64,000 nucleotides of DNA from assembly GCA_963662335.2 (NCBI GenBank), contig CAXXVD010000002.1, forward strand, positions 480,001-544,000, written 5' to 3'. Positions 1,484 through 59,333 of the stretch are shown piece by piece (positions within the stretch are counted from its first letter, which is position 1; each line of letters starts with the position of its first letter). The stretch comes from Chloroflexota bacterium (GTDB taxonomy: Bacteria > Chloroflexota > UBA11872 > VXOZ01). A program made the translations under genes and the position numbers. The notes under the pieces were generated by a model. It saw nothing but the letters and a program-made list of their open reading frames with translations, made no database searches and was not told the DNA's origin.

Positions 1484-3079
1484 CTAGCCGCGTTCGACGA
1501 ACACCGGCGCGAGCATGTTGTCCACCGGCGCGTAGCTGTCGGTGAGGATGACGGCGGAACTGTTGTCCACGTACGCGCGCAGGCGGGCGGGGTCGAGCAT
1601 GGTGCTCACCGGGCCCTTGGGCAGCAGGCCGGCCACCCGGTCGTGCAGGGCCGCTTCCGTGAGCGGCTGCGCGCCGGCCACCAGCACGAACGTATTGCGG
1701 CCCTCCTGCTCCCAGCCCGGGCCTTCCGCCAACAGGTAGACGTGGGGAAAGACCTGCTCCAGGGTCAGAATCAGCGACGGCAGGAAGCGGCCGTGTTCGA
1801 ACGTATCCACCACGTTCAGCATGTAGTAGCCGTCCGGGGTCAGCAGCGCGCGCACTTTCTCGGCGAACTCCCGGGTGGTCAGGTGATAGGGCACCGAGAG
1901 GTCGTTGAAGGCGTCGCCGATCACCGCGTCGTACCGGCCGGCTTCCAGGCGTTTCACCACCAGGCGCGCGTCCTCGTTGTAGGTGATTACGCGGGTGTCG
2001 CGGGGGAGGCCCATCTTGGCGTGGGCCATTTCCGTGACCGCCGGGTCGATCTCCGCCACCTCGATCACCGCGCCGGGATAGACCGCCTCCAGGTAGCGGG
2101 GAAAGGTGTAGCCGCCCCCGCCAATGGAGAAGGAGCGGATGCCGTCCCGGTCACCGGCGATATAGGAAATTAGCTCGGCGTATATCTTTACGTAGTCATA
2201 GTCAAGCCGCGTGGGGTCTTCCAGGATGCTGTAGCTGTGGATCAGGTGGTCCAGCACCAGGCGGCGTTGGGTGACGTTTTCTTCCAGTTTCTTTTCGCTC
2301 ACCCGGATGCAGAAGTAGTTGGTCTCCACGTCGCACGGCGCGGCAAACGCGCCGCGCGGCTGCAAGGTCACGGCGTCCTGCGCCAGATTGCGCACGTAGT
2401 TCCAGCCCAGGGGCATGGAATAGGCGTTGCGCCCGTAGCTGACGACGCTCAGTCCCACGAGCAGCAGCGCGCCGCCGCCCAGCAACAGACGGCGGTTCCA
2501 GAGGTCGCCGAAGACGATCGCCACCAGCAGCAGAATCACGGCCACGAGCAGGATGACCGTGCGCGTGCCGAAGAACGAGACCAGGAAGAAGCCGGTGGCA
2601 AAGGTGCCGGCGATCGCGCCCACCGTGGAGAGGGCGTAGATGCGGCCCACCACGCCGCCGGTGCGGGAAAGATCGTCCAGGATGAGGCGCACGACTACCG
2701 GCGTGATGGTGCCCATGAACACGCTCGGCAGGAAGAAGACCGCGGCGGTGAAGAAGAGGATCTTCAACATGAGGTGCACGGGCAAGTCCTGCGCGATGCC
2801 GGAAATGACGGCCGTCAGCGGCAGGATGGCGAGCGTAAAGACGCTGGAGATGAGAAAGAGCACGCCCAGCGTGGAGACCGCCGGAAAGCGGTCGCCGATG
2901 CGCCCGCCGGCGTAGTTCCCCAGGCTGATGCCCGCCAGCATCACGCCGATCACGCTGGTCCAGGTGTAGAGCGAGACGCCCAAGTACGGCGCGATCATGC
3001 GCCCGGCCGTGAGTTCCACGACCAGCGTGCAGAAACTCGCGATGAAGACGATCGTGCCCGCCCGCCAGGTGCCGCGCAT
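1484..3079 (-). CDS. Fused MFS-like membrane domain / spermidine synthase-like SAM-dependent protein
   Basis: N-terminal TM helices with ELTAGRMIAPYLG..YTW; C-terminal IGGGGYT, EID, DAR, DAF and LTDSYAP motifs. Confidence 0.9.
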   Translation of the reverse strand: MRGTWRAGTIVFIASFCTLVVELTAGRMIAPYLGVSLYTWTSVIGVMLAGISLGNYAGGRIGDRFPAVSTLGVLFLISSVFTLAILPLTAVISGIAQDLPVHLMLKILFFTAAVFFLPSVFMGTITPVVVRLILDDLSRTGGVVGRIYALSTVGAIAGTFATGFFLVSFFGTRTVILLVAVILLLVAIVFGDLWNRRLLLGGGALLLVGLSVVSYGRNAYSMPLGWNYVRNLAQDAVTLQPRGAFAAPCDVETNYFCIRVSEKKLEENVTQRRLVLDHLIHSYSILEDPTRLDYDYVKIYAELISYIAGDRDGIRSFSIGGGGYTFPRYLEAVYPGAVIEVAEIDPAVTEMAHAKMGLPRDTRVITYNEDARLVVKRLEAGRYDAVIGDAFNDLSVPYHLTTREFAEKVRALLTPDGYYMLNVVDTFEHGRFLPSLILTLEQVFPHVYLLAEGPGWEQEGRNTFVLVAGAQPLTEAALHDRVAGLLPKGPVSTMLDPARLRAYVDNSSAVILTDSYAPVDNMLAPVFVERG

Positions 3080-3275
3080 GGGGATGTCCCTTTCGTTGCC
3101 GTGGTACGTGCTGCTTTGTGTGTTCGTGAGCGTGTGGGTGTCGAGCGCAGAAAAGGCCTGATTCCACTACGTTTCTATTGTAGCCCTCAGCTTGCCCCGC
3201 TCGCATCCCCGCTGGCGCTCGGCTACACTATGTGAGAGGCGCATGCAGACGCAGACGGCATGAAGAGCAACGGCT

Positions 3276-4613
3276 ATGGCAGGCATTACGGCGGCACAGC
3301 GCGGCGACATGATGGCGGTGTTGGCGGCGGCGCTCAAGGCCGTGGACCCGGCGCAGGCGGTACGGAACCGCGTGCGGCGGGAGGGCGCGCGGTTGACGGT
3401 TGGGGACGCGGTGTACGACCTGGACTCGTACCGGCGGGTTCTTGTGGTAGGCGCGGGCAAGGCGAGCGGGCCGATGGCGCAGGCGCTGGAGGAGATTCTG
3501 AGCGACCGCCTGGCCGGCGGCGTGGTCAACGTCAAGGAGGGCTACGCCGTTCCCACGCAACGAATCGAGTTGATCGAGGCGGCGCACCCGGTGCCGGATG
3601 AGAACGGCGTGCGCGGCACCGAACGTATCTTGCAGATGGCGGCGGACGCCGGCGCGGACGATCTGGTGTTCTGCCTGATTTCCGGCGGCGGCTCGGCGCT
3701 CATGGAATTGCCGACAGCCGGCATTACGCTGGACGACGTGCAGCAACTCACCGACCTGCTCCTGCGCAGCGGCGCGACCATCAATGAAGTAAACACCATT
3801 CGCAAGCACATCTCGCAGGTGAAAGGCGGCGGCCTGGCGCGCGCCGCCGCGCCCGCCACGCTCATCGCGCTCATTCTCTCCGACGTGGTGGGCAATCCGC
3901 TGGACTTCATCGCCTCCGGGCCGACCGTGCCGGACACGACGACATTTCAAGACGCCTGGCAACTCCTGGGGAAGTTCCGCTTGCAGGACGCCATACCGGC
4001 CAGCGTGCGCGCGCAACTCCGGCGCGGCCTGGACGGCGCGATACCGGACACGCCCAAAGCGGGCGACCCGCTCTTCGCGCGCGCGGCGAGCGAGTTGGTG
4101 GGCAGCAACGAGATCGCGGCGCGCGCCGCGCTGGACGCGGCCACGGCCTTGGGGTATAATACAGTCCTGGTCACCACGTGGGTGGAAGGTGAGGCGCGTG
4201 AGGTTGCCAAAGTGATGGCCGGAGTCGCCAAGGGTCTGATTCGCCACCACTCCCCCGTCCCGCCGCCGGCGTGCCTTATCTTCGGCGGTGAAACCACGGT
4301 CACGGTGCGCGGCGATGGGCAGGGCGGGCGCAGCCAAGAAATGGCACTGGCCGCCTCTCTTGCGCTGGACGGCTGGGAAGACGTGGCGGTGATGGCGGTG
4401 GGCACCGACGGCACCGACGGCCCGACCGACGGGGCCGGCGGCATCGCCGACGGCGCGGTGCGCGGCCGGGCGCAGGCGCTGGGCCTGGACCCGCTTGCTT
4501 TCCTGGACCGCAACGACTCCTACCACTTCCTGCGGCAGACCGACGCGCTGCTGGTCACCGGACCGACCAACACCAACGTGAACGACCTGATCTTCGTCTA
4601 CGCTTTTGGCTAG
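3276..4613 (+). CDS. Glycerate 2-kinase / hydroxypyruvate reductase-like (TtuD/MOFRL family)
   Basis: GAGKAS, ISGGGSAL, RKHISQVKGG, SDV, IASGPT, GGETTV, GGRSQE, TDGTDG, TGPTNTNVND. Confidence 0.92.
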   Translation: MAGITAAQRGDMMAVLAAALKAVDPAQAVRNRVRREGARLTVGDAVYDLDSYRRVLVVGAGKASGPMAQALEEILSDRLAGGVVNVKEGYAVPTQRIELIEAAHPVPDENGVRGTERILQMAADAGADDLVFCLISGGGSALMELPTAGITLDDVQQLTDLLLRSGATINEVNTIRKHISQVKGGGLARAAAPATLIALILSDVVGNPLDFIASGPTVPDTTTFQDAWQLLGKFRLQDAIPASVRAQLRRGLDGAIPDTPKAGDPLFARAASELVGSNEIAARAALDAATALGYNTVLVTTWVEGEAREVAKVMAGVAKGLIRHHSPVPPPACLIFGGETTVTVRGDGQGGRSQEMALAASLALDGWEDVAVMAVGTDGTDGPTDGAGGIADGAVRGRAQALGLDPLAFLDRNDSYHFLRQTDALLVTGPTNTNVNDLIFVYAFG

Positions 4614-4695
4614 GGGAATGCCCTAGCATCCTCGTTCGTTCGTCTCCTCGGTTCAGCTTATCCTCCTCTCGCAGTCTACGGCAGGTGATTCCCCC

Positions 4696-5163
4696 ATGGA
4701 ACTGAAAGAAAGAGTCCGCCCTCCTCTGCATTCGTCGCTTCTCTCTTCCGCCCCAGCGCAGCGCTGGCACTCGGTGAGCCGGCGCAGCGACCTGCGGCCG
4801 TTGTCCCGGGGCCGCAGCCAAACGGCGCTGCTTGGGTTTTGCCTGGTGTTCGCGGTACTCGCGCTCAGCGGCGGCGTGCTGCTGTGGTGGGCGGGTCAAG
4901 CCGCTAACGCCGGCGAGCAGAGCCCCCAGGTTAGCGAGGCGTTGCAGATTACGCCCGTGCCCCCCACTCCCAGCCCGCTTCCCGCCGAACCGACGGCAAC
5001 GCCCATGCCCACGTCCCACGTCGTGCGGCCGGGCGAGTCGCTCACCGCCATAGCCGAGCGGTATAATACGACCGTGGCGGTCCTGGCGGAACTGAATGGC
5101 ATCGCGAATCCGAATGCGATCCGGGCCGGCACGGAACTGCGCCTGCCGTCCGCGCAGCCGTAG
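4696..5163 (+). CDS. Membrane-anchored LysM peptidoglycan-binding protein
   Basis: TM helix, Pro/Thr linker, C-terminal [29 protein letters not shown] LysM. Confidence 0.88.
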
Positions 5164-5208
5164 GACGCGCGCGGGGGCGCGGAATCCATTCGGGAGGCCC
5201 GCGAAGAT

Positions 5209-5530
5209 AGATTCCCGCTTTCGCGGGAATGACGGAGTTGCTACCCGCTTTCTTCGCCGTTCACCCTTCGACGTTGCTCAGGGCGAACGGCTTGGTTGCG
5301 CTATCTTCATGGTAACGACGGAGTTAGACGTGCCGTTTTCCTGGTAATCACCATGGCCCCACGACGGCCACGCGAGGGAATGAAAGTGAACGCACCTCTC
5401 TCCGTTCGTGCTGAGCCTGTCGAAGCATGAACGGAGAGAGGTGCGTGCGGAGTTGCTGCCCGCCTCCTCCACCGTTCACCCTTCGACGCCGCTCAGAGCC
5501 TGCCCCGTACTCGATACGGGGGCGAACGGT
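5209..5530. repeat. Composite cluster of REP-like palindromes (ATTCCCGC-N-GCGGGAATGAC; CCCTTCGAC..GCTCAGGGCGAACGG types)
   Basis: Several short hairpins; the ATTCCCGC type recurs at 26846-26870 and, as an ATTCCGGC variant, at 31532-31556. Confidence 0.75.
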
Positions 5531-27041: not shown

Positions 27042-27316
27042 GAGGCCGCGCCTTTCCATCGATTCCGCCCCCTGAAGCGCCCACGCGGCGCTAGCTCCGG
27101 CCAAGCTTCCTTGCGGCACCCGAAAGTAACCGCTTACCGCTGCTTCCTTCCGGACCTGACGGGGTTCACGGCCTCTCGCCGCGCAAGACCCAGCCATCAA
27201 CGCCGCAGACCACGCGGCAGCCTCCAGGACGCGCAAACCTCACGGAAAGCTGTCAACCCCGCTATAGCGGATTGCGGGTAACAGGGCACCGCTAACTCCC
27301 CGCCTAGCACGGCCTC
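27042..27316 (-). ncRNA. ffs: Signal recognition particle RNA, large (Alu-domain) bacterial type
   Basis: Minus strand has CCGTCAGGTCCGGAAGGAAGCAGCGG (domain IV), the 5' Alu part GGGGAGTTAGCGGTGCCCTGT..CCCGCAATCCGC, and a 5'/3' closing helix; lies upstream of dnaX. Confidence 0.95.
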
Positions 27317-27323
27317 GGGTTTA

Positions 27324-27353
27324 ATGCTACGCAAACTCAAGCCACAGCGTCAA
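27324..27353 (-). promoter_or_regulatory. Sigma70-type promoter of ffs
   Basis: TTGACG-18-TAGCAT just upstream of the RNA 5' end. Confidence 0.6.
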
Positions 27354-27464
27354 GCGCTGCCGGTTGAAGTTGGTGGGATCAAGCAATGGAGAAAATCGAC
27401 GAGACGCGATGGCGGTGGAATTACAAGTCGTAGGCTTTACTTTTCTATTGCCACTCTGGTCTCC

Positions 27465-27791
27465 CCACGTCTGACTGCGTCGTACATCAGTGCTTTCCAG
27501 AATCACAACATTGATCCGCGCGCAATCCTCATGATGGACTATTCCACCGGCTTCAACGGAGTTCTTGACCAAGTGCTGCACCTGCGCGTCAACCATAGCG
27601 AGCGCTATGCAGATAGCGCGATTCGCGCCAGCACCATTGAGAGATTATGGTCATTGGTGAAGCGTGCGATTGCCGGCCGCCACTACACGGTAGAGCACAC
27701 TGCGTCCTACATTGATGAGGTGGCGTACAAGTACAGTATTGGGAAGTCTGAAACGCCCTGGGACGACTTCATGCAGAGGGGTGTGGCTTAG
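27465..27791 (+). pseudogene. IS1595-family (ISXO2-like) transposase C-terminal remnant
   Basis: LMMD..H..VNHS..Y....STIERLWSLVKR...Y.DE..YKY; zinc ribbon and first catalytic Asp missing. Confidence 0.78.
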
Positions 27792-28071
27792 TATCTTGGT
27801 TCTTGCGACTGTTTTCGAGCTCTTCAATGCGCTTCTCAAGGGCCTGTATCAGGTGAAGGCAATCGCGCAATACTTCGGCTGCGGCGAGATTGAGAAAAGG
27901 CACAAAGGTGACTCTGCTATCAACGTACTTTTCGGGTAGATACTCTTTCAGACTCCAGTGCACGTCCTTATTGGGCATCTCGTCGTCTGGCACGGGCCAC
28001 ATCCACGACCATTTTTGATAGGTTGCAATCAACTCCTCCGCTCTTTCCGATACGGTTTTCTCAGTTGCCAT
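27769..28071 (-). CDS. Hypothetical protein in AT-rich island
   Basis: ORF with AAGGA RBS and C-terminal coiled coil. Confidence 0.5.
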   Translation of the reverse strand: MATEKTVSERAEELIATYQKWSWMWPVPDDEMPNKDVHWSLKEYLPEKYVDSRVTFVPFLNLAAAEVLRDCLHLIQALEKRIEELENSRKNQDTKPHPSA

Positions 28072-28073
28072 TC

Positions 28074-28274
28074 TCAATCCTTTCGCCAGGTAAGGGAATG
28101 ATTCAGGGTAGTAATCCTATGGTCGAGTATCCCCGTAAGCTGCATGTACTCAGTGAGGCTTTGCCTCCTTGTAGTGCGTTCCGGTGTTCTGCGTGCGGTC
28201 TGTTTGCGCAAGTGAGCGACTTCAAGCCTCAGTCGCTCTTTCTCTTCGTCTAAATCGTCCACCTCTTCGCACAA
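28074..28274 (-). CDS. Small hypothetical protein (start uncertain)
   Basis: Open frame extends up to an AAGGAG RBS near 28335 but has no clean start codon. Confidence 0.35.
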   Translation of the reverse strand: MCEEVDDLDEEKERLRLEVAHLRKQTARRTPERTTRRQSLTEYMQLTGILDHRITTLNHSLTWRKD

Positions 28275-28469
28275 CCAGCTTGAGGCATCATCGTTGACGC
28301 CATCGCTGAACTCGTGTAACGTAAGTCTAACTCCTTTGCAAGTATTATGAGTCGAAGCGGGCTGGTGTCAGCGCACCAGTCCGATTTGCCTAATCCTATT
28401 GATGTTGCGATCGACTGTCGATTCTATGGGAATAACGTACTTGACTTGAATCTGGCGTTCAATGTCGAG

Positions 28470-28697
28470 TTACGACTCTCCGTACGGTCCTAGAAACGAC
28501 TCAATCTCCTCGTGGTCACACTCCAAAAATGCAAGCCATGTCCGGACATAGAGGTCAGCCAAGAACTCCCCTCTAGGTATTGGCACGTAGATTGTGCTTC
28601 CGCTTTTGCGCCACACGTCTGTGCGGTCATTTGAAGTCACAAAATAGCAGCCTAAGTCCTTGATTTTATTGATGAAGTGCTGCCGACGTATACGCAT
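28470..28697 (-). CDS. HicA-like toxin (dsRBD-like fold)
   Basis: 75 aa, FINKIKDLG.YFV.....W......VPIP pattern; overlaps the hicB-like stop; canonical GSH His not seen. Confidence 0.55.
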   Translation of the reverse strand: MRIRRQHFINKIKDLGCYFVTSNDRTDVWRKSGSTIYVPIPRGEFLADLYVRTWLAFLECDHEEIESFLGPYGES

Positions 28698-28983
28698 GGT
28701 TGTCTACCTGTTGTGCAATAAAGGGCATATCGATCGGTGTGCCTACTTCCAGTCCTGGCGGCTTTGTCCATCCGCGATCAGAAAAGAACTCGTCAATCTC
28801 TCCCTCAATGAGCAGGCTCAGGAAAAGCAGGCTCATTGCATCCCCAATGTTCTGCATTAGTTGCGACCAAGTCTCGCCCTGGGTTGCCATGGTCAAGCCT
28901 TCGCAGAACGCCACATAGTAGCCGGACTCAGTATCTGTAACAAGCCACTCCACTGATGCGTCTATAGTCACCTTGTCGATCAC
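28666..28983 (-). CDS. HicB-like antitoxin
   Basis: YVAFCEGL...TQGETWSQLMQNIGDAMSL motif; GTG start after GAGGAG. Confidence 0.7.
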   Translation of the reverse strand: MIDKVTIDASVEWLVTDTESGYYVAFCEGLTMATQGETWSQLMQNIGDAMSLLFLSLLIEGEIDEFFSDRGWTKPPGLEVGTPIDMPFIAQQVDNHAYTSAALHQ

Positions 28984-29104
28984 GGCATTTTCTCCTCTAG
29001 GGTTGCCTTGATCTGAACACAGTAGCAGACTTGCGTCACGCGAAAGTCCGCTACTTCTGGTTCCACAAGTTACCGCACAAAATTGTGCAAATGAACCTAG
29101 ACCC

Positions 29105-29135
29105 ATTATAGCGTTATACGCTAGAAAGGAGTCAA
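29105..29135 (-). promoter_or_regulatory. Promoter of the hicB-hicA-like pair with internal palindromic operator
   Basis: TTGACT-19-TATAAT; TAGCGT-TAT-ACGCTA inverted repeat at 29109-29123. Confidence 0.5.
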
Positions 29136-29306
29136 GGGTTATCAGACTAAAATCCTAGGAAATCTATTCTTTCAGAGCCGGACGATGTGATCAATGCGGT
29201 TCCAGCGGCTCTTCCCCGTCCAATAGCAGCGGTATAGGTGAGAGAAAGAGACCAGCTAGAATCAAGCTAAGTACGTTATTCCGGATTCTATCCAGGAGCG
29301 GTAGTT

Positions 29307-30242
29307 TCAACTAAGGGAGAAGATAGCAGAGTATTGCGACATGTCCTTTTGGTCGTCGTCCATATGTATTACAAGGACAACGTTCATACCTTTCCAAATA
29401 CGCCAAGCTTGCCAGCCGACAACGGAATCGCCAATGCTTAGATAAGGCACCCATTCAATTGGATTGCCGACGAAATCAGGGTAAGGGTGGACTGATCCTT
29501 GACTGCCACTCTCCATAATGAGGCTAGTTGGTTGGGCACTGCTGCATCGAACGATCCATGTACCTACGCATATGTGATAGTTGAAGAATGCCTTGTTCTC
29601 TCCTAGTGTATTGATGCCTGCGAGCTTGACCCTGTACTTCACGGCTACGTCTTCTTCGTCGTGTTTAGGTGCCGTATAATCAATATATTTGTTGCTTCGC
29701 TTTAGGAGATTAGCTTGATCAACTACTGCCTGACCTCTCATGACCTCCAGTACAGTCACCTCCCAGGTTTCGCCATCGTGAGTGAAGCGATGCGGCACAC
29801 CCACAGGCACGGTTGATACACCAGGCCATGCCACTGGTGCAGGCGTGGGTGTGGATAGTGGCACTGGCGTTGGCTGCGGTACCGGCGTTGCGACACCGCC
29901 CCCTGGCGCGTAATCTGCCTCCCAGGGGAAACGCTCGGTGTTGAGCCGCACCACTAGCCCGTTCGGGCCGTTGATCCACGTGCGGTAGCCGTCGGTGAAC
30001 GCAGTCCAATTGTCGGCCTTGCGCCACGCCATGAGGCCGCCAGTGGTCTGTTGATTGCTGTCGCCAATATGGTTGTAGTGCTCGTTCTCCAGGCAGTCGC
30101 CGACAATGTCATGCCCAATTAGATCCCGCAGGGTTGCGAAGCCGAGCCGGAACTCGCAGTGATTGGTGGCGGTTGTTGGAGTGGATAGTAGCAAGAACAA
30201 AAACGCGGACAGAATGAGAGATCGTTGGACTAAGGAACGCAT
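29307..30242 (-). CDS. Secreted protein: signal peptide, Chloroflexi-type N-terminal domain, Pro/Thr linker, AT-rich C-terminal domain
   Basis: AAGGAGG RBS; CEFRLGF..L...VGDCLE...QQTTGGLMAWRKADNWTAFTDGYRTW domain. Confidence 0.8.
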   Translation of the reverse strand: MRSLVQRSLILSAFLFLLLSTPTTATNHCEFRLGFATLRDLIGHDIVGDCLENEHYNHIGDSNQQTTGGLMAWRKADNWTAFTDGYRTWINGPNGLVVRLNTERFPWEADYAPGGGVATPVPQPTPVPLSTPTPAPVAWPGVSTVPVGVPHRFTHDGETWEVTVLEVMRGQAVVDQANLLKRSNKYIDYTAPKHDEEDVAVKYRVKLAGINTLGENKAFFNYHICVGTWIVRCSSAQPTSLIMESGSQGSVHPYPDFVGNPIEWVPYLSIGDSVVGWQAWRIWKGMNVVLVIHMDDDQKDMSQYSAIFSLS

Positions 30243-30281
30243 TGCTGGTGCCTCCTTGCGACACGCTACATAGTGAACGGG

Positions 30282-30389
30282 TTGCTACAGCCTGACACCA
30301 GAGTGGGCCGCAAGGAGACGTGCAAGCACGTCACTACGAGGGTGTCTCGATCTGAGACCCACTGCTGGTGCGTATTCAAGCTGTAGCAA
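30282..30389 (-). ncRNA. Candidate structured RNA / 5' leader (three-way junction), unassigned family
   Basis: 14-bp closing helix, two further helices, gCUUGc tetraloop; G-U pairs only work on the minus strand; promoter directly upstream. Confidence 0.55.
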
Positions 30390-30394
30390 GTTGC

Positions 30395-30423
30395 AAGGTA
30401 GCAAGAGGCAAAATGCTAGTCAA
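30395..30423 (-). promoter_or_regulatory. Sigma70-type promoter inside an IS1595-like end
   Basis: TTGACT-17-TACCTT; predicted start site near 30388. Confidence 0.5.
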
Positions 30424-30522
30424 GTTTAAGTCTGCCTACTCCGGGAAGCGCCGCCATTGACAAGCTAGCACTCGCTGGCTAGGATTAAGGGGAGTTTGAG
30501 GCAGGCTTGAGGAGGAGCGGCA

Positions 30523-30711
30523 GTGGCGGCGATTGACGAGAGGGTTGCGCGGATTGAGGGCGGCTACGAGCACTTGGTGACGAAGGCTGACATCGCACGG
30601 CTTGAAGGCGAAATGAAGGCGATGGAAAGCCGGCTCATTCGCTGGATAGTGGTAGTGATGGTACTGTGGGGCGGGGCGCTGATAGCCGCGATGCAGTTTA
30701 TCCCGGTCTGA
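30523..30711 (+). CDS. Small coiled-coil plus TM protein (DUF1640-like)
   Basis: GAGGAGG RBS; HLVTKADIARLE..ESRLIRW then a TM helix. Confidence 0.75.
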   Translation: MAAIDERVARIEGGYEHLVTKADIARLEGEMKAMESRLIRWIVVVMVLWGGALIAAMQFIPV

Positions 30712-31293: not shown

Positions 31294-31346
31294 TCTATAG
31301 ATGGTCTTCCTGTGGCGTAGCGCGGGGGCTTGTCCCCCGCTGGCCT

Positions 31347-31742: not shown

Positions 31743-32182
31743 GCGGGGGACAAGCCTCCGCGCTACAAGGTGTGAGGCCCCATGCTTCGGACCAAGAGCG
31801 GGGGACAAGCCCCCGCGCTCCAGGGCGTGAGGCCTCATGCTTCAGACCAAGAGCGGGGGACAAGCCCCCGCGCTACAGGGCGTGAGGCCCCATGCTTCGG
31901 ACCAAGAGCGGGGGACAAGCCCCCGCGCTACAGGGTGTGGGGCCTCGTGCTAGGGAGCAAGAGCGGGGGACAAGCCCCCGCGCTACAAGGTTTGAGGCCC
32001 CATGCTTTGGACCAAGAGCGGGGGACAAGCCCCCGCGCTACAAGGTTTGAGGCCCCATGCTTTGGACCAAGAGCGGGGGACAAGCCCCCGCGCTACAGGG
32101 TGTGGGGCCTCGTGCTTCGGACCAAGAGCGGGGGACAAGCCCCCGCGCTACGGGGATTGAGGCCTCGTGCTACGGTCTAAGC
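31743..32182. repeat. Tandem array of 8 x 55-bp units (24-bp GTAG REP plus 31-bp hairpin linker), BIME-like
   Basis: REP starts at 31743, 31798, 31853, 31908, 31963, 32018, 32073, 32128. Confidence 0.95.
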
Positions 32183-37592: not shown

Positions 37593-37665
37593 AGCGGGAG
37601 ACGGGACTCGAACCCGCGACATCCAGCTTGGAAGGCTAGCGCTCTGCCAACTGAGCTACTCCCGC
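37593..37665 (-). tRNA. tRNA-Gly (TCC)
   Basis: GCGGGAGTAGCTCAGTTGGCAGAGC-CTAGC CT TCC AA GCTGG-GCGGGTTCGAGTCCCG-CTCCCGCT; CCA not encoded. Confidence 0.97.
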
Positions 37666-58940: not shown

Positions 58941-59078
58941 GCGTGTTCCTCTTCATGCGGGTCTACGATTAGGGTGATTCAGGAGAGGGACAAGAGCAAA
59001 TGCTAGCGCATGAGCCGCCGGGCTGTAAACTGAGACGGCCGCGCACGATCTGGGGGCCTAAGTCTCTAGCGCAACGGT

Positions 59079-59333
59079 GTAGGGGCACGACATGTCGTGC
59101 CCCTACACCTGTTGGCGAGTCCCATGAAGGCGCTTTTGCGGCGCCCTGCCACGTCGCTGTAACCGCAATGGGGACAAGCCCCCGGGATACGGCGCCGGCG
59201 GGGGACAAGCCCCCGCGCTACGCTGATTCGACACAAGCCCCTGCGCTACGCTGACTCGACGCAAGCCCCCGCGCTACGCTGACTCGACGCAAGCCCCCGC
59301 GCTACGCTGATTTGACACAAGCCCCCGCGCTAC
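59079..59333. repeat. REP cluster including 5 x 28-bp half-REP tandem units (59206-59333)
   Basis: caagcccccgcgctacgctgaYtcgacR units at 59206, 59234, 59262, 59290, 59318. Confidence 0.9.

Follow-up and report, generated by a model that had tools for sequence, protein, structure and literature searches.

In the preQ1-II/III and SAM-II types of riboswitch the Shine-Dalgarno (SD) sequence is hidden in a pseudoknot, and in RNA thermometers such as ROSE and FourU it lies in a weak, mismatch-rich helix. The rpoS leader is self-inhibitory and works with the trans-acting RNAs DsrA, RprA and ArcZ, the transposase mRNAs of IS10 and IS50 are subject to fold-back inhibition, and the leaders of ompA, aprE and ermC carry a 5'-terminal stem-loop that stabilizes the mRNA and needs no complementarity to the SD. 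Earlier reports describe translational riboswitch platforms that hide the SD in a pseudoknot (PMC9410914, PMC10622847) and the psl leader with RsmA, a self-inhibitory leader governed by a trans factor (PMC2984543). In this study, a leader RNA on the minus strand of contig CAXXVD010000002.1 from a Chloroflexota bacterium (assembly GCA_963662335.2) was compared with these systems. The stretch analyzed, positions 480,001-544,000 of the contig, is called the window and is numbered 1-64,000. The leader precedes a gene for a secreted protein with a conserved N-terminal domain (N-domain), and it is a real, conserved, strand-specific RNA whose family is undescribed, although its kind of regulation is familiar. 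Hiding its own SD is its best-supported job, and it probably acts as a cis-acting translational throttle of the mRNA of the N-domain protein by concealing the ribosome-binding site.

Read along the minus strand from 30423 to 30240, the element consists of TTGACT, a 17-nt spacer, TGC-TACCTT, six bases and a 108-nt segment (30389-30282). The 39 nt between this segment and the ATG contain CGCAAGGAGG, and a 311-codon open reading frame (ORF) follows. A repeat search of the window found the outer helix arms UUGCUACAGCUUGA (30389-30376) and UCAGGCUGUAGCAA (30295-30282), 14 nt long and 93% complementary. The same search showed that CUCCUUGCG (30317-30309) is complementary to CGCAAGGAG (30260-30252) at 9/9 positions; this SD/anti-SD complementarity reaches 12-13 base pairs (bp) once G-U pairs are counted. 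All sequence elements claimed in a first-pass annotation of the window, including CACCAG/CUGGUG, AGUGG/CCACU, GUCUC/GAGAC and GACGUG-CUUG-CACGUC, are present on the minus strand where they had been placed. Elsewhere in the window, the outer-arm 14-mer yielded nothing beyond the two arms and chance (6 matches with at most three mismatches, 3.0 expected), and covariance models gave no further credible match (59077-59140 at 13.8 bits, E 0.81).

The 108-nt segment has a minimum free energy (MFE) of -57.4 kcal/mol, compared with -33.4 +/- 3.5 kcal/mol for dinucleotide shuffles (z -6.9), and none of 200 shuffles was as stable. The opposite strand folds more weakly (-50.4 kcal/mol, z -4.8). Together with the covariation in homologs described below, this bears out the earlier proposal of a structured, strand-specific and unannotated RNA. 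The three-way junction that had been proposed within it was not upheld. The MFE structure contains CGAG/CUCG in place of the GUCUC/GAGAC hairpin, so that the apical junction is a prediction from a single sequence, and the apical domain (loop 1, L1) is not alignable across the sequence classes described below, including the comparison with loci L003, L004 and L044. The anti-SD and the SD are the only conserved unpaired stretches.

Homologous leaders were found through their genes. From a genome scan with the N-domain protein, the best 80 of 306 encoding stretches were kept, corresponding to 72 loci (L001-L072) in Chloroflexota metagenome-assembled genomes (MAGs), several per genome, with the N-domain gene at about position 2501 of each locus. 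With the window gene, 73 paralogous genes were compared. By sequence (blastn and nhmmer) a homologous leader is present in 3 of the 72 loci, namely L001, L015 and L016, the latter two being identical and from one genome; the upstream regions of the 73 genes otherwise fall into many unrelated blastn classes. A local-structure scan indicated that the leaders of L003 and L004 share the geometry of the window leader, and 110-nt segments starting 145-150 nt before the start codon fold at -54 to -58 kcal/mol (z -6.7 or lower) in 6 of the 7 final members. When the 73 leaders are ordered by the strength of their SD-to-upstream duplex, the top seven are L044, L004, the window, L001, L015, L016 and L003, with energies of -24.8 to -26.9 kcal/mol and the anti-SD 72-81 nt before the start codon in each. 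A covariance model from the three close sequences gave 26.4 bits (E 0.001) for L003 and 16.3 bits (E 0.22) for L004. Rebuilt with L003, it detected L004 at 21.4 bits (E 0.008) and L044 at 20.4 bits (E 0.015), both at coordinates predicted beforehand from the motif, and nothing beyond the members scored above the family's own reverse strands in the 436,831 bases searched. From the sequence, duplex and covariance-model searches together, the membership is therefore 7 of 73 leaders (window, L001, L003, L004, L015, L016 and L044), and these comprise six distinct sequences that fall into four classes. With its presence in six of the 72 loci and the window only, the leader was rejected as a feature common to N-domain genes at large.

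The remark in the first-pass annotation that no Rfam family was recognizable holds after searching. Over the whole window, Rfam 15 at the gathering score matched nothing but the signal recognition particle (SRP) RNA (minus strand, 27046-27312) and one tRNA (37593-37665), and between 30000 and 30700 there were 0 matches at E up to 10. None of the leaders of L001, L003, L004, L015 and L044 was matched at E up to 1, the sole match in these five loci being a sub-threshold one to alpha_tmRNA in L004, away from the leader. Plasmid and phage collections searched with 30240-30445 (blastn, 11-base words) gave no match, and the partial texts returned by a full-text literature search held nothing on such an element in Chloroflexota.

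Pair counts were taken from a model-based alignment of the six distinct leaders (A9), in which the SD/anti-SD helix was left out of the model. Standard pairs make up 99.1% of its 221 cells, compared with 37-44% when the partners are slid by 1-3 columns, and both sides have changed in 22 of 38 pairs. The outer helix P1 (13 pairs) has 7 pairs changed on both sides and 2 on one side, the inner helix P2 (13 pairs) 12 and 1, and the SD/anti-SD helix (12 pairs) 3 and 3; the counts for P1 and P2 lean towards structure because A9 was fitted to these helices. RNAalifold without guidance also predicts P1 and P2, with a covariation term of -6.1, and the rod formed by the two helices is found in each sequence class folded singly. 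Because 26 of the 221 cells are G-U, the pairing works only as RNA of the minus strand. Within the sequence class of the window (window class), GACGUG-CUUG-CACGUC is replaced by GACGCG-UUCG-CGCGUC, a compensatory change of U-A to C-G with a loop change of CUUG to UUCG; C-G/U-G in the outer stem is swapped for U-G/C-G, and GAGAC becomes GAGAU.

The built-in anti-SD is the best-supported part of the first-pass annotation. On a plain MAFFT alignment all 72 of 72 SD/anti-SD cells are paired over the six distinct leaders, compared with 41-56% in slid controls. Three positions show compensatory double changes of U-A/C-G and three more show G-C/G-U, and the same counts were obtained on A9. Between the window, L001 and L015, identity is 94-97% in the 3' half of the leader and 83-87% in the 5' half; it is 52-64% at third codon positions of the N-domain and 56-74% in the signal-peptide region. 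The constraint on the leader thus equals that of first and second codon positions. As judged from these alignments, the helices P1, P2 and SD/anti-SD co-vary and the leader is under purifying selection; covariation among homologs had been named beforehand as a test of the RNA, and all three helices change in a compensatory way. Two other pairings had been proposed as alternatives for the region before the start codon, GGCACCAG/CUGGUGUC and UGUAGCG/UGCUACA. Each is confined to the near-identical window class, and the aligned positions of L003, L004 and L044 pair in 2-3 of 7-8 cells, so neither was kept. A start-stop AUG-UAG in the linker was likewise discarded, since it is missing from L003, L004 and L044. 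The parts of the element and its surroundings are listed in Table 1.

Table 1. Features of the leader, the regulated gene and the surrounding island (window coordinates)
Feature	Position	Strand	Basis
-35-like hexamer TTGACT	30418-30423	-	read in the sequence; TTGAC invariant in window, L001, L015
Extended -10-like TGC + TACCTT	30395-30403 (TACCTT 30400-30395)	-	read in the sequence
P1 5' strand, 13 nt	30377-30389	-	MFE; partner 30282-30294; same helix in RNAalifold
P2 5' strand, 13 paired nt and one bulged C	30358-30371	-	MFE, pair counts, RNAalifold
L1 apical domain, 38 nt, predicted hairpins including GACGUG-CUUG-CACGUC	30320-30357	-	MFE
Anti-SD GUCUCCUUGCGG, directly abutting the P2 3' strand	30308-30319	-	partner 30250-30261
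P2 3' strand	30295-30307	-	MFE, pair counts, RNAalifold
P1 3' strand	30282-30294	-	MFE, inverted-repeat search, pair counts, RNAalifold
L3 linker, 20 nt, invariant within the window class	30262-30281	-	leader alignment
SD strand UCGCAAGGAGGC	30250-30261	-	sequence, duplex scan, pair counts
Regulated gene, 311 amino acids: signal peptide, conserved N-domain of ~85 amino acids (CEFRLGF type), Pro/Thr linker, variable C-terminal domain	29307-30242	-	
Low-GC island: leader, gene, inverted-repeat-flanked two-ORF unit, IS1595 remnant	27313-30445	.	GC content
Truncated IS1595-family transposase, convergent with the gene	27324-27791	+	Pfam PF12762 3.8e-13; NCBIfam NF033547 below cut-off; tblastn match

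The geometry is kept in the six distinct leaders, with P1 of 11-13 bp, P2 of 10-13 bp, L1 of 32-43 nt, the anti-SD against P2 and a linker (L3) of 17-21 nt. Because the rod crosses the SD/anti-SD helix, the two can coexist only as an H-type pseudoknot without loop 2, or else they are alternative states. In the mechanism that we propose, transcription would start at, or a few nt from, the base of the 26-bp P1+P2 rod, which would fold once nt 83-108 emerge and would bury the 5' end. The 12-nt anti-SD, which continues the P2 3' strand, would then be displayed at the upper end of the rod, and the SD region would pair with it on emerging past the linker. In this H-type topology stem 1 would be P1+P2, loop 1 the variable apical domain, loop 3 the linker and stem 2 the anti-SD/SD helix, with loop 2 absent. 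Translation initiation would be throttled in the pseudoknotted fold, and expression could be raised by opening stem 2, either through breathing, through a factor on the apical domain or through loss of the competing fold. The transcription start, the coexistence of the helices as a pseudoknot rather than their alternation, the direction of control and any trigger are the parts of this scheme that we infer.

Promoters in the window and the loci were called with a two-hexamer scan. The promoter of L015 (TTGACT-17-TACCAT with a TG), that of L001 (TTGACG-18-TAGTAT with a TG) and that of L003 (TTGACC-17-TAGACT) were called and end 5-6 nt before the rod. At the matching place, TGATACAAT in L004 and TACTAT in L044 can be seen by eye. 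The window promoter was not called because TACCTT matches at only three of six positions. Of the TTGACT-17-TACCTT promoter in the first-pass annotation, the hexamers and their spacing are therefore present and have called homologs in three loci, while the window's own copy went uncalled. By its sequence, the window transcript would start about 6-8 nt past TACCTT, at the base of P1. A second anti-SD close to the promoter, which would silence read-through transcripts, was considered and rejected; the p values of the six leaders were 0.128, 0.08, 0.03, 0.006, 0.598 and 0.088, below 0.05 only in L015 (0.03) and L003 (0.006). Downstream of the structure, the window, L001, L003, L015 and L044 have no terminator-like site. 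In L004 alone, a terminator-like match with a 5-bp stem and a T-rich tail (2410-2425) lies over the anti-SD.

Several results weigh against the leader being a throttle of its own mRNA. The -10 element of the window is weak and uncalled, and a two-hexamer promoter was called for neither L004 nor L044 either. The terminator-like match in L004 could mean another mode of control there. The pair counts derive from only six distinct sequences in four classes, on an alignment fitted to P1 and P2. When SD sequestration was forced by nested refolding, the resulting state lay 10-17 kcal/mol above the MFE in the window class and L003, with a pairing probability of 0; it lay 6 kcal/mol above the MFE in L004 and equaled it in L044. 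With the rod intact, SD engagement is 3-11 kcal/mol better than the apical fold, the pseudoknot penalty not yet included. Once the local cost of opening the SD and the usual penalty are counted, the pseudoknot and hairpin states are roughly isoenergetic, within a few kcal/mol. An SD mimic in the apical domain that would pair with the anti-SD was not significant against shuffles (p 0.83, 0.31, 0.45, 0.36, 0.096 and 0.034), which leaves a designed toggle unproven. As the energies cannot decide and all three helices are under selection, the pseudoknot was taken as the more economical reading. Of the two-state translational switch described in the first-pass annotation, the conserved SD/anti-SD helix stands, whereas the two other alternative pairings found no support. 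The leader may be either a fixed pseudoknotted throttle or a true two-state switch. A more speculative idea, to which we attach a rather small probability, is that the leader with its rod and pseudoknot belongs to a new class of true sensors, with the variable apical domain reading a signal (protein, RNA or ligand) that decides on translation of one particular paralog within the large, IS-mobilized set of secreted N-domain proteins. In its boldest version a processed rod would act in trans through its anti-SD on paralogs with an extended CGCAAGG-type SD, giving a hierarchy among surface-protein variants.

The same observations were weighed under other explanations. If the leader were a 5'-terminal stem-loop that only stabilizes the mRNA, with an SD complementarity devoid of function, the great stability of the rod and its start about 5-6 nt after the called -10 elements in L015, L001 and L003 would fit, as would a secreted product that could be abundant. 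Such a stabilizer would leave unexplained the 12-bp SD/anti-SD helix, with its 72/72 paired cells and three compensatory changes, as well as the invariant linker and the constant distance from anti-SD to start codon, and we regard it as unlikely in this exclusive form; stabilizing and throttling are compatible roles. We are just as doubtful about a leader operated by a protein or a trans-acting RNA, in which a regulator on the apical domain or the linker decides whether the anti-SD captures the SD. There is no candidate partner, and no conserved neighboring regulator gene exists among the homologs because their upstream DNA is unrelated; yet the window class has an invariant 20-nt linker that is not required by any supported helix, CCGUUCA reappears in the L004 linker, and the leader is carried by a minority of paralogs (7/73). 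A metabolite-sensing riboswitch, with the apical domain as aptamer and the anti-SD as expression platform, appears quite improbable. Its closing helix, junction and SD sequestration would resemble the layout of a translational riboswitch and the two states are close in estimated energy, but no Rfam aptamer matched even at E 10. In addition, the products of the downstream genes are secreted proteins whose C-termini are unrelated, not the enzymes or transporters of one pathway. Across the four classes (six distinct sequences), no unpaired nucleotides of the apical domain are both alignable and conserved, which argues against a conserved ligand pocket.

Two further explanations place the function outside the mRNA on which the throttle would act. 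The anti-SD could belong to an independent small RNA, that is, a C4-like antisense RNA, a type I antitoxin or a processed RNA from the 5' untranslated region (UTR) acting in trans on paralogs. The rod would make a stable RNA species, and CGCAAGG-type SD regions are also found in paralogs without this leader, such as L010, L028 and L034. On the other hand, five of the leaders (window, L001, L003, L015 and L044) have no terminator-like site after the structure, no C4 or toxin-antitoxin RNA of Rfam matched, and no conserved small ORF lies opposite, since the upstream DNA is unrelated among the homologs; on these grounds the C4 or type I toxin-antitoxin-like element of the first-pass annotation was set aside. 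Moreover, the best and co-varying partner of the anti-SD is the SD of its own mRNA, and an independent small RNA is considered highly improbable. The element could also act as DNA, for instance as the end of IS1595 or of a transposon, as an operator palindrome or as a site of recombination like attC. The unit does sit in a low-GC island, an IS1595 transposase lies downstream in most leader loci, and L015 and L016 are a duplication (99.97% over more than 3 kb) that begins 58 nt upstream of the RNA. However, the 26 G-U cells and the pairing changes that work on the minus strand only would be mismatches in duplex DNA, and the covariance model scores the reverse strand at 15-24 bits, compared with 166-192 bits. 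A matching terminal inverted repeat was found in neither L001 nor the window. Sites of the attC type carry a conserved R' core GTTRRRY, and no such core is present at the arms in the window sequence. With the complementarity to the SD also left unexplained, a DNA-level element is given the least credence of all.

The protein whose mRNA the leader would throttle carries a signal peptide, in keeping with the surface-protein gene of the first-pass annotation, and has no Pfam or NCBIfam match. A protein search found 1,449 homologs at E <=0.001 among 3,628 candidates, and those named are Chloroflexota MAG proteins. The N-domains of the homologs are 70-89% identical and their C-termini differ, including DUF4352, LRR and others. 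Among the leader genes, the window and L015 have one C-terminal type, L001 and L004 have DUF4352, L003 has another type and L044 has PD40 propeller repeats; the leader associates with the N-domain and not with the C-terminus. The N-domain is of the CEFRLGF form in every one of the seven leader genes, and the leader is present in 7 of 19 CEFRLGF genes versus 0 of 54 genes with another form (Fisher p 3e-5). A single clade of 19 rows, with support short of the starred level, takes in six of the seven leader genes. Against profiles from the Protein Data Bank, all matches (E 0.012 or worse) lay in the low-complexity linker region, and the AlphaFold model is poor (pLDDT, the predicted local distance difference test, of 64). 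In the ESM Atlas only hypothetical Chloroflexota clusters were found, together with an unconfirmed lead to LGFP repeats (22% of the members of one cluster).

Over L001-L072, the family has two conserved cysteine residues in a near-invariant N-domain, swapped C-termini that include HExxH-containing domains recognized by eye, and up to ten kept loci per genome. The N-domain gene of L047 has an in-frame stop at the conserved W of the GGLMAWRK motif and is likely a pseudogene. Two other groups of leaders in the family were noted. The leaders of L010, L028 and L034, before about 2468-2471, have UUGCGGC, CUGGUG and UGUCGCAAGG in common with the 3' half of the window leader and no rod, and the anti-SD-like CUCUUGCGGCA of this class lies in a short local hairpin with the SD. 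This class may be a truncated relative. L018 and L033 have an unrelated leader class with its own 12-bp SD-complement about 60 nt before the start codon, CUCCUACCGUUCG with GAAUGGUAGGAG; for L018 none of 200 shuffles was as good, and for L033 p was 0.035. SD occlusion may therefore recur independently in the N-domain gene family.

The island that holds leader and gene has a GC content of 51.5%, compared with 64.6-65.3% in its flanks. It is an insertion with the SRP RNA gene on one side and, on the other, a divergent, membrane-like ORF of 62 codons (plus strand, 30523-30711). The homology of the window with L001 and L015 begins at about 30408-30433 by one comparison and about 20 nt before the -35 hexamer by another, and upstream of this the DNA of the leader homologs is unrelated. 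An IS1595-type transposase gene is found downstream and convergent in 5 of 7 leader loci versus 3 of 66 others (Fisher p 7e-5). L015 and L016, two copies from the same genome, share positions 2251-5279 at 99.97% identity; the duplication begins 58 nt upstream of the RNA, runs off the end of the locus and spans at least 3,029 nt. Besides the leader and the N-domain gene, it includes further ORFs and an intact transposase gene of the IS1595 type. The low-GC island, the IS1595 association and the duplication thus support the mobile-cassette context claimed in the first-pass annotation; terminal inverted repeats matching the left boundary, which would define a transposon, are found in neither the window nor L001.

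Within the island, 28-nt inverted repeats (28429-28456 and 29255-29282, 86% complementary) enclose two small ORFs on the minus strand (28470-28697 and 28666-29106), neither of which matched Pfam or NCBIfam; the whole looks like a small mobile two-gene unit. The divergent ORF beside the island has its own promoter-like site, TTGACA-17-TAGGAT, at 30457-30485. Further away, at 31743-32175 just upstream of dnaE, a tandem array holds 7.9 copies of a 55-nt unit with 90% matches. Each unit carries the GC-rich palindrome GCGGGGGACAAGCCCCCGC, of which a single inverted copy is located 400 nt away at 31316-31341.

If the interpretation as an SD-hiding leader is right, a new RNA family with covariation support, absent from Rfam 15, controls translation in one branch of the secreted N-domain proteins, which form a very large family in Chloroflexota. 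As the leader travels with the gene in a mobile low-GC unit, it would be a portable expression-control module. This leads to the question of how a polymorphic set of surface or secreted proteins is regulated in uncultured Chloroflexota, and whether a long rod stacked on an SD helix serves as a fixed throttle or as a switch.

An SD-sequestering cis-regulatory leader is recognized by an upstream segment that pairs with the SD and is kept by selection, and such a segment was found here (72/72 cells). With the ompA, aprE and ermC leaders the present RNA shares a stable helix at about the predicted 5' end, but here an SD/anti-SD helix co-varies in addition. Like the thermometers ROSE and FourU, it occludes the SD by base pairing within the leader; its helix, however, has 12 consecutive standard pairs at -20 to -27 kcal/mol, and no Rfam model matched it. 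The fold-back inhibition of IS10 and IS50 has in common with it the mobile-element context and an upstream sequence able to pair with the ribosome-binding site, whereas the gene regulated here encodes a passenger-like secreted protein instead of a transposase, and a promoter-proximal second anti-SD is significant in 2 of 6 leaders only (L003, p 0.006; L015, p 0.03). The rpoS and psl leaders are similar in having a long 5' UTR with an upstream anti-SD segment that pairs with the SD. In contrast to these, no candidate partner is at hand, and the anti-SD sits atop a separate, co-varying rod and is not one arm of a single hairpin. The preQ1-II/III and SAM-II types share with it the position in a cis-acting 5' leader, the pairing of the SD with upstream sequence in an H-type topology and translation as the controlled step. 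The present leader differs from them in that no aptamer model matched and no ligand pocket is conserved across its classes, and in that its stem 1 is a 26-bp rod and its stem 2 a helix of 12 bp, both far longer than theirs.

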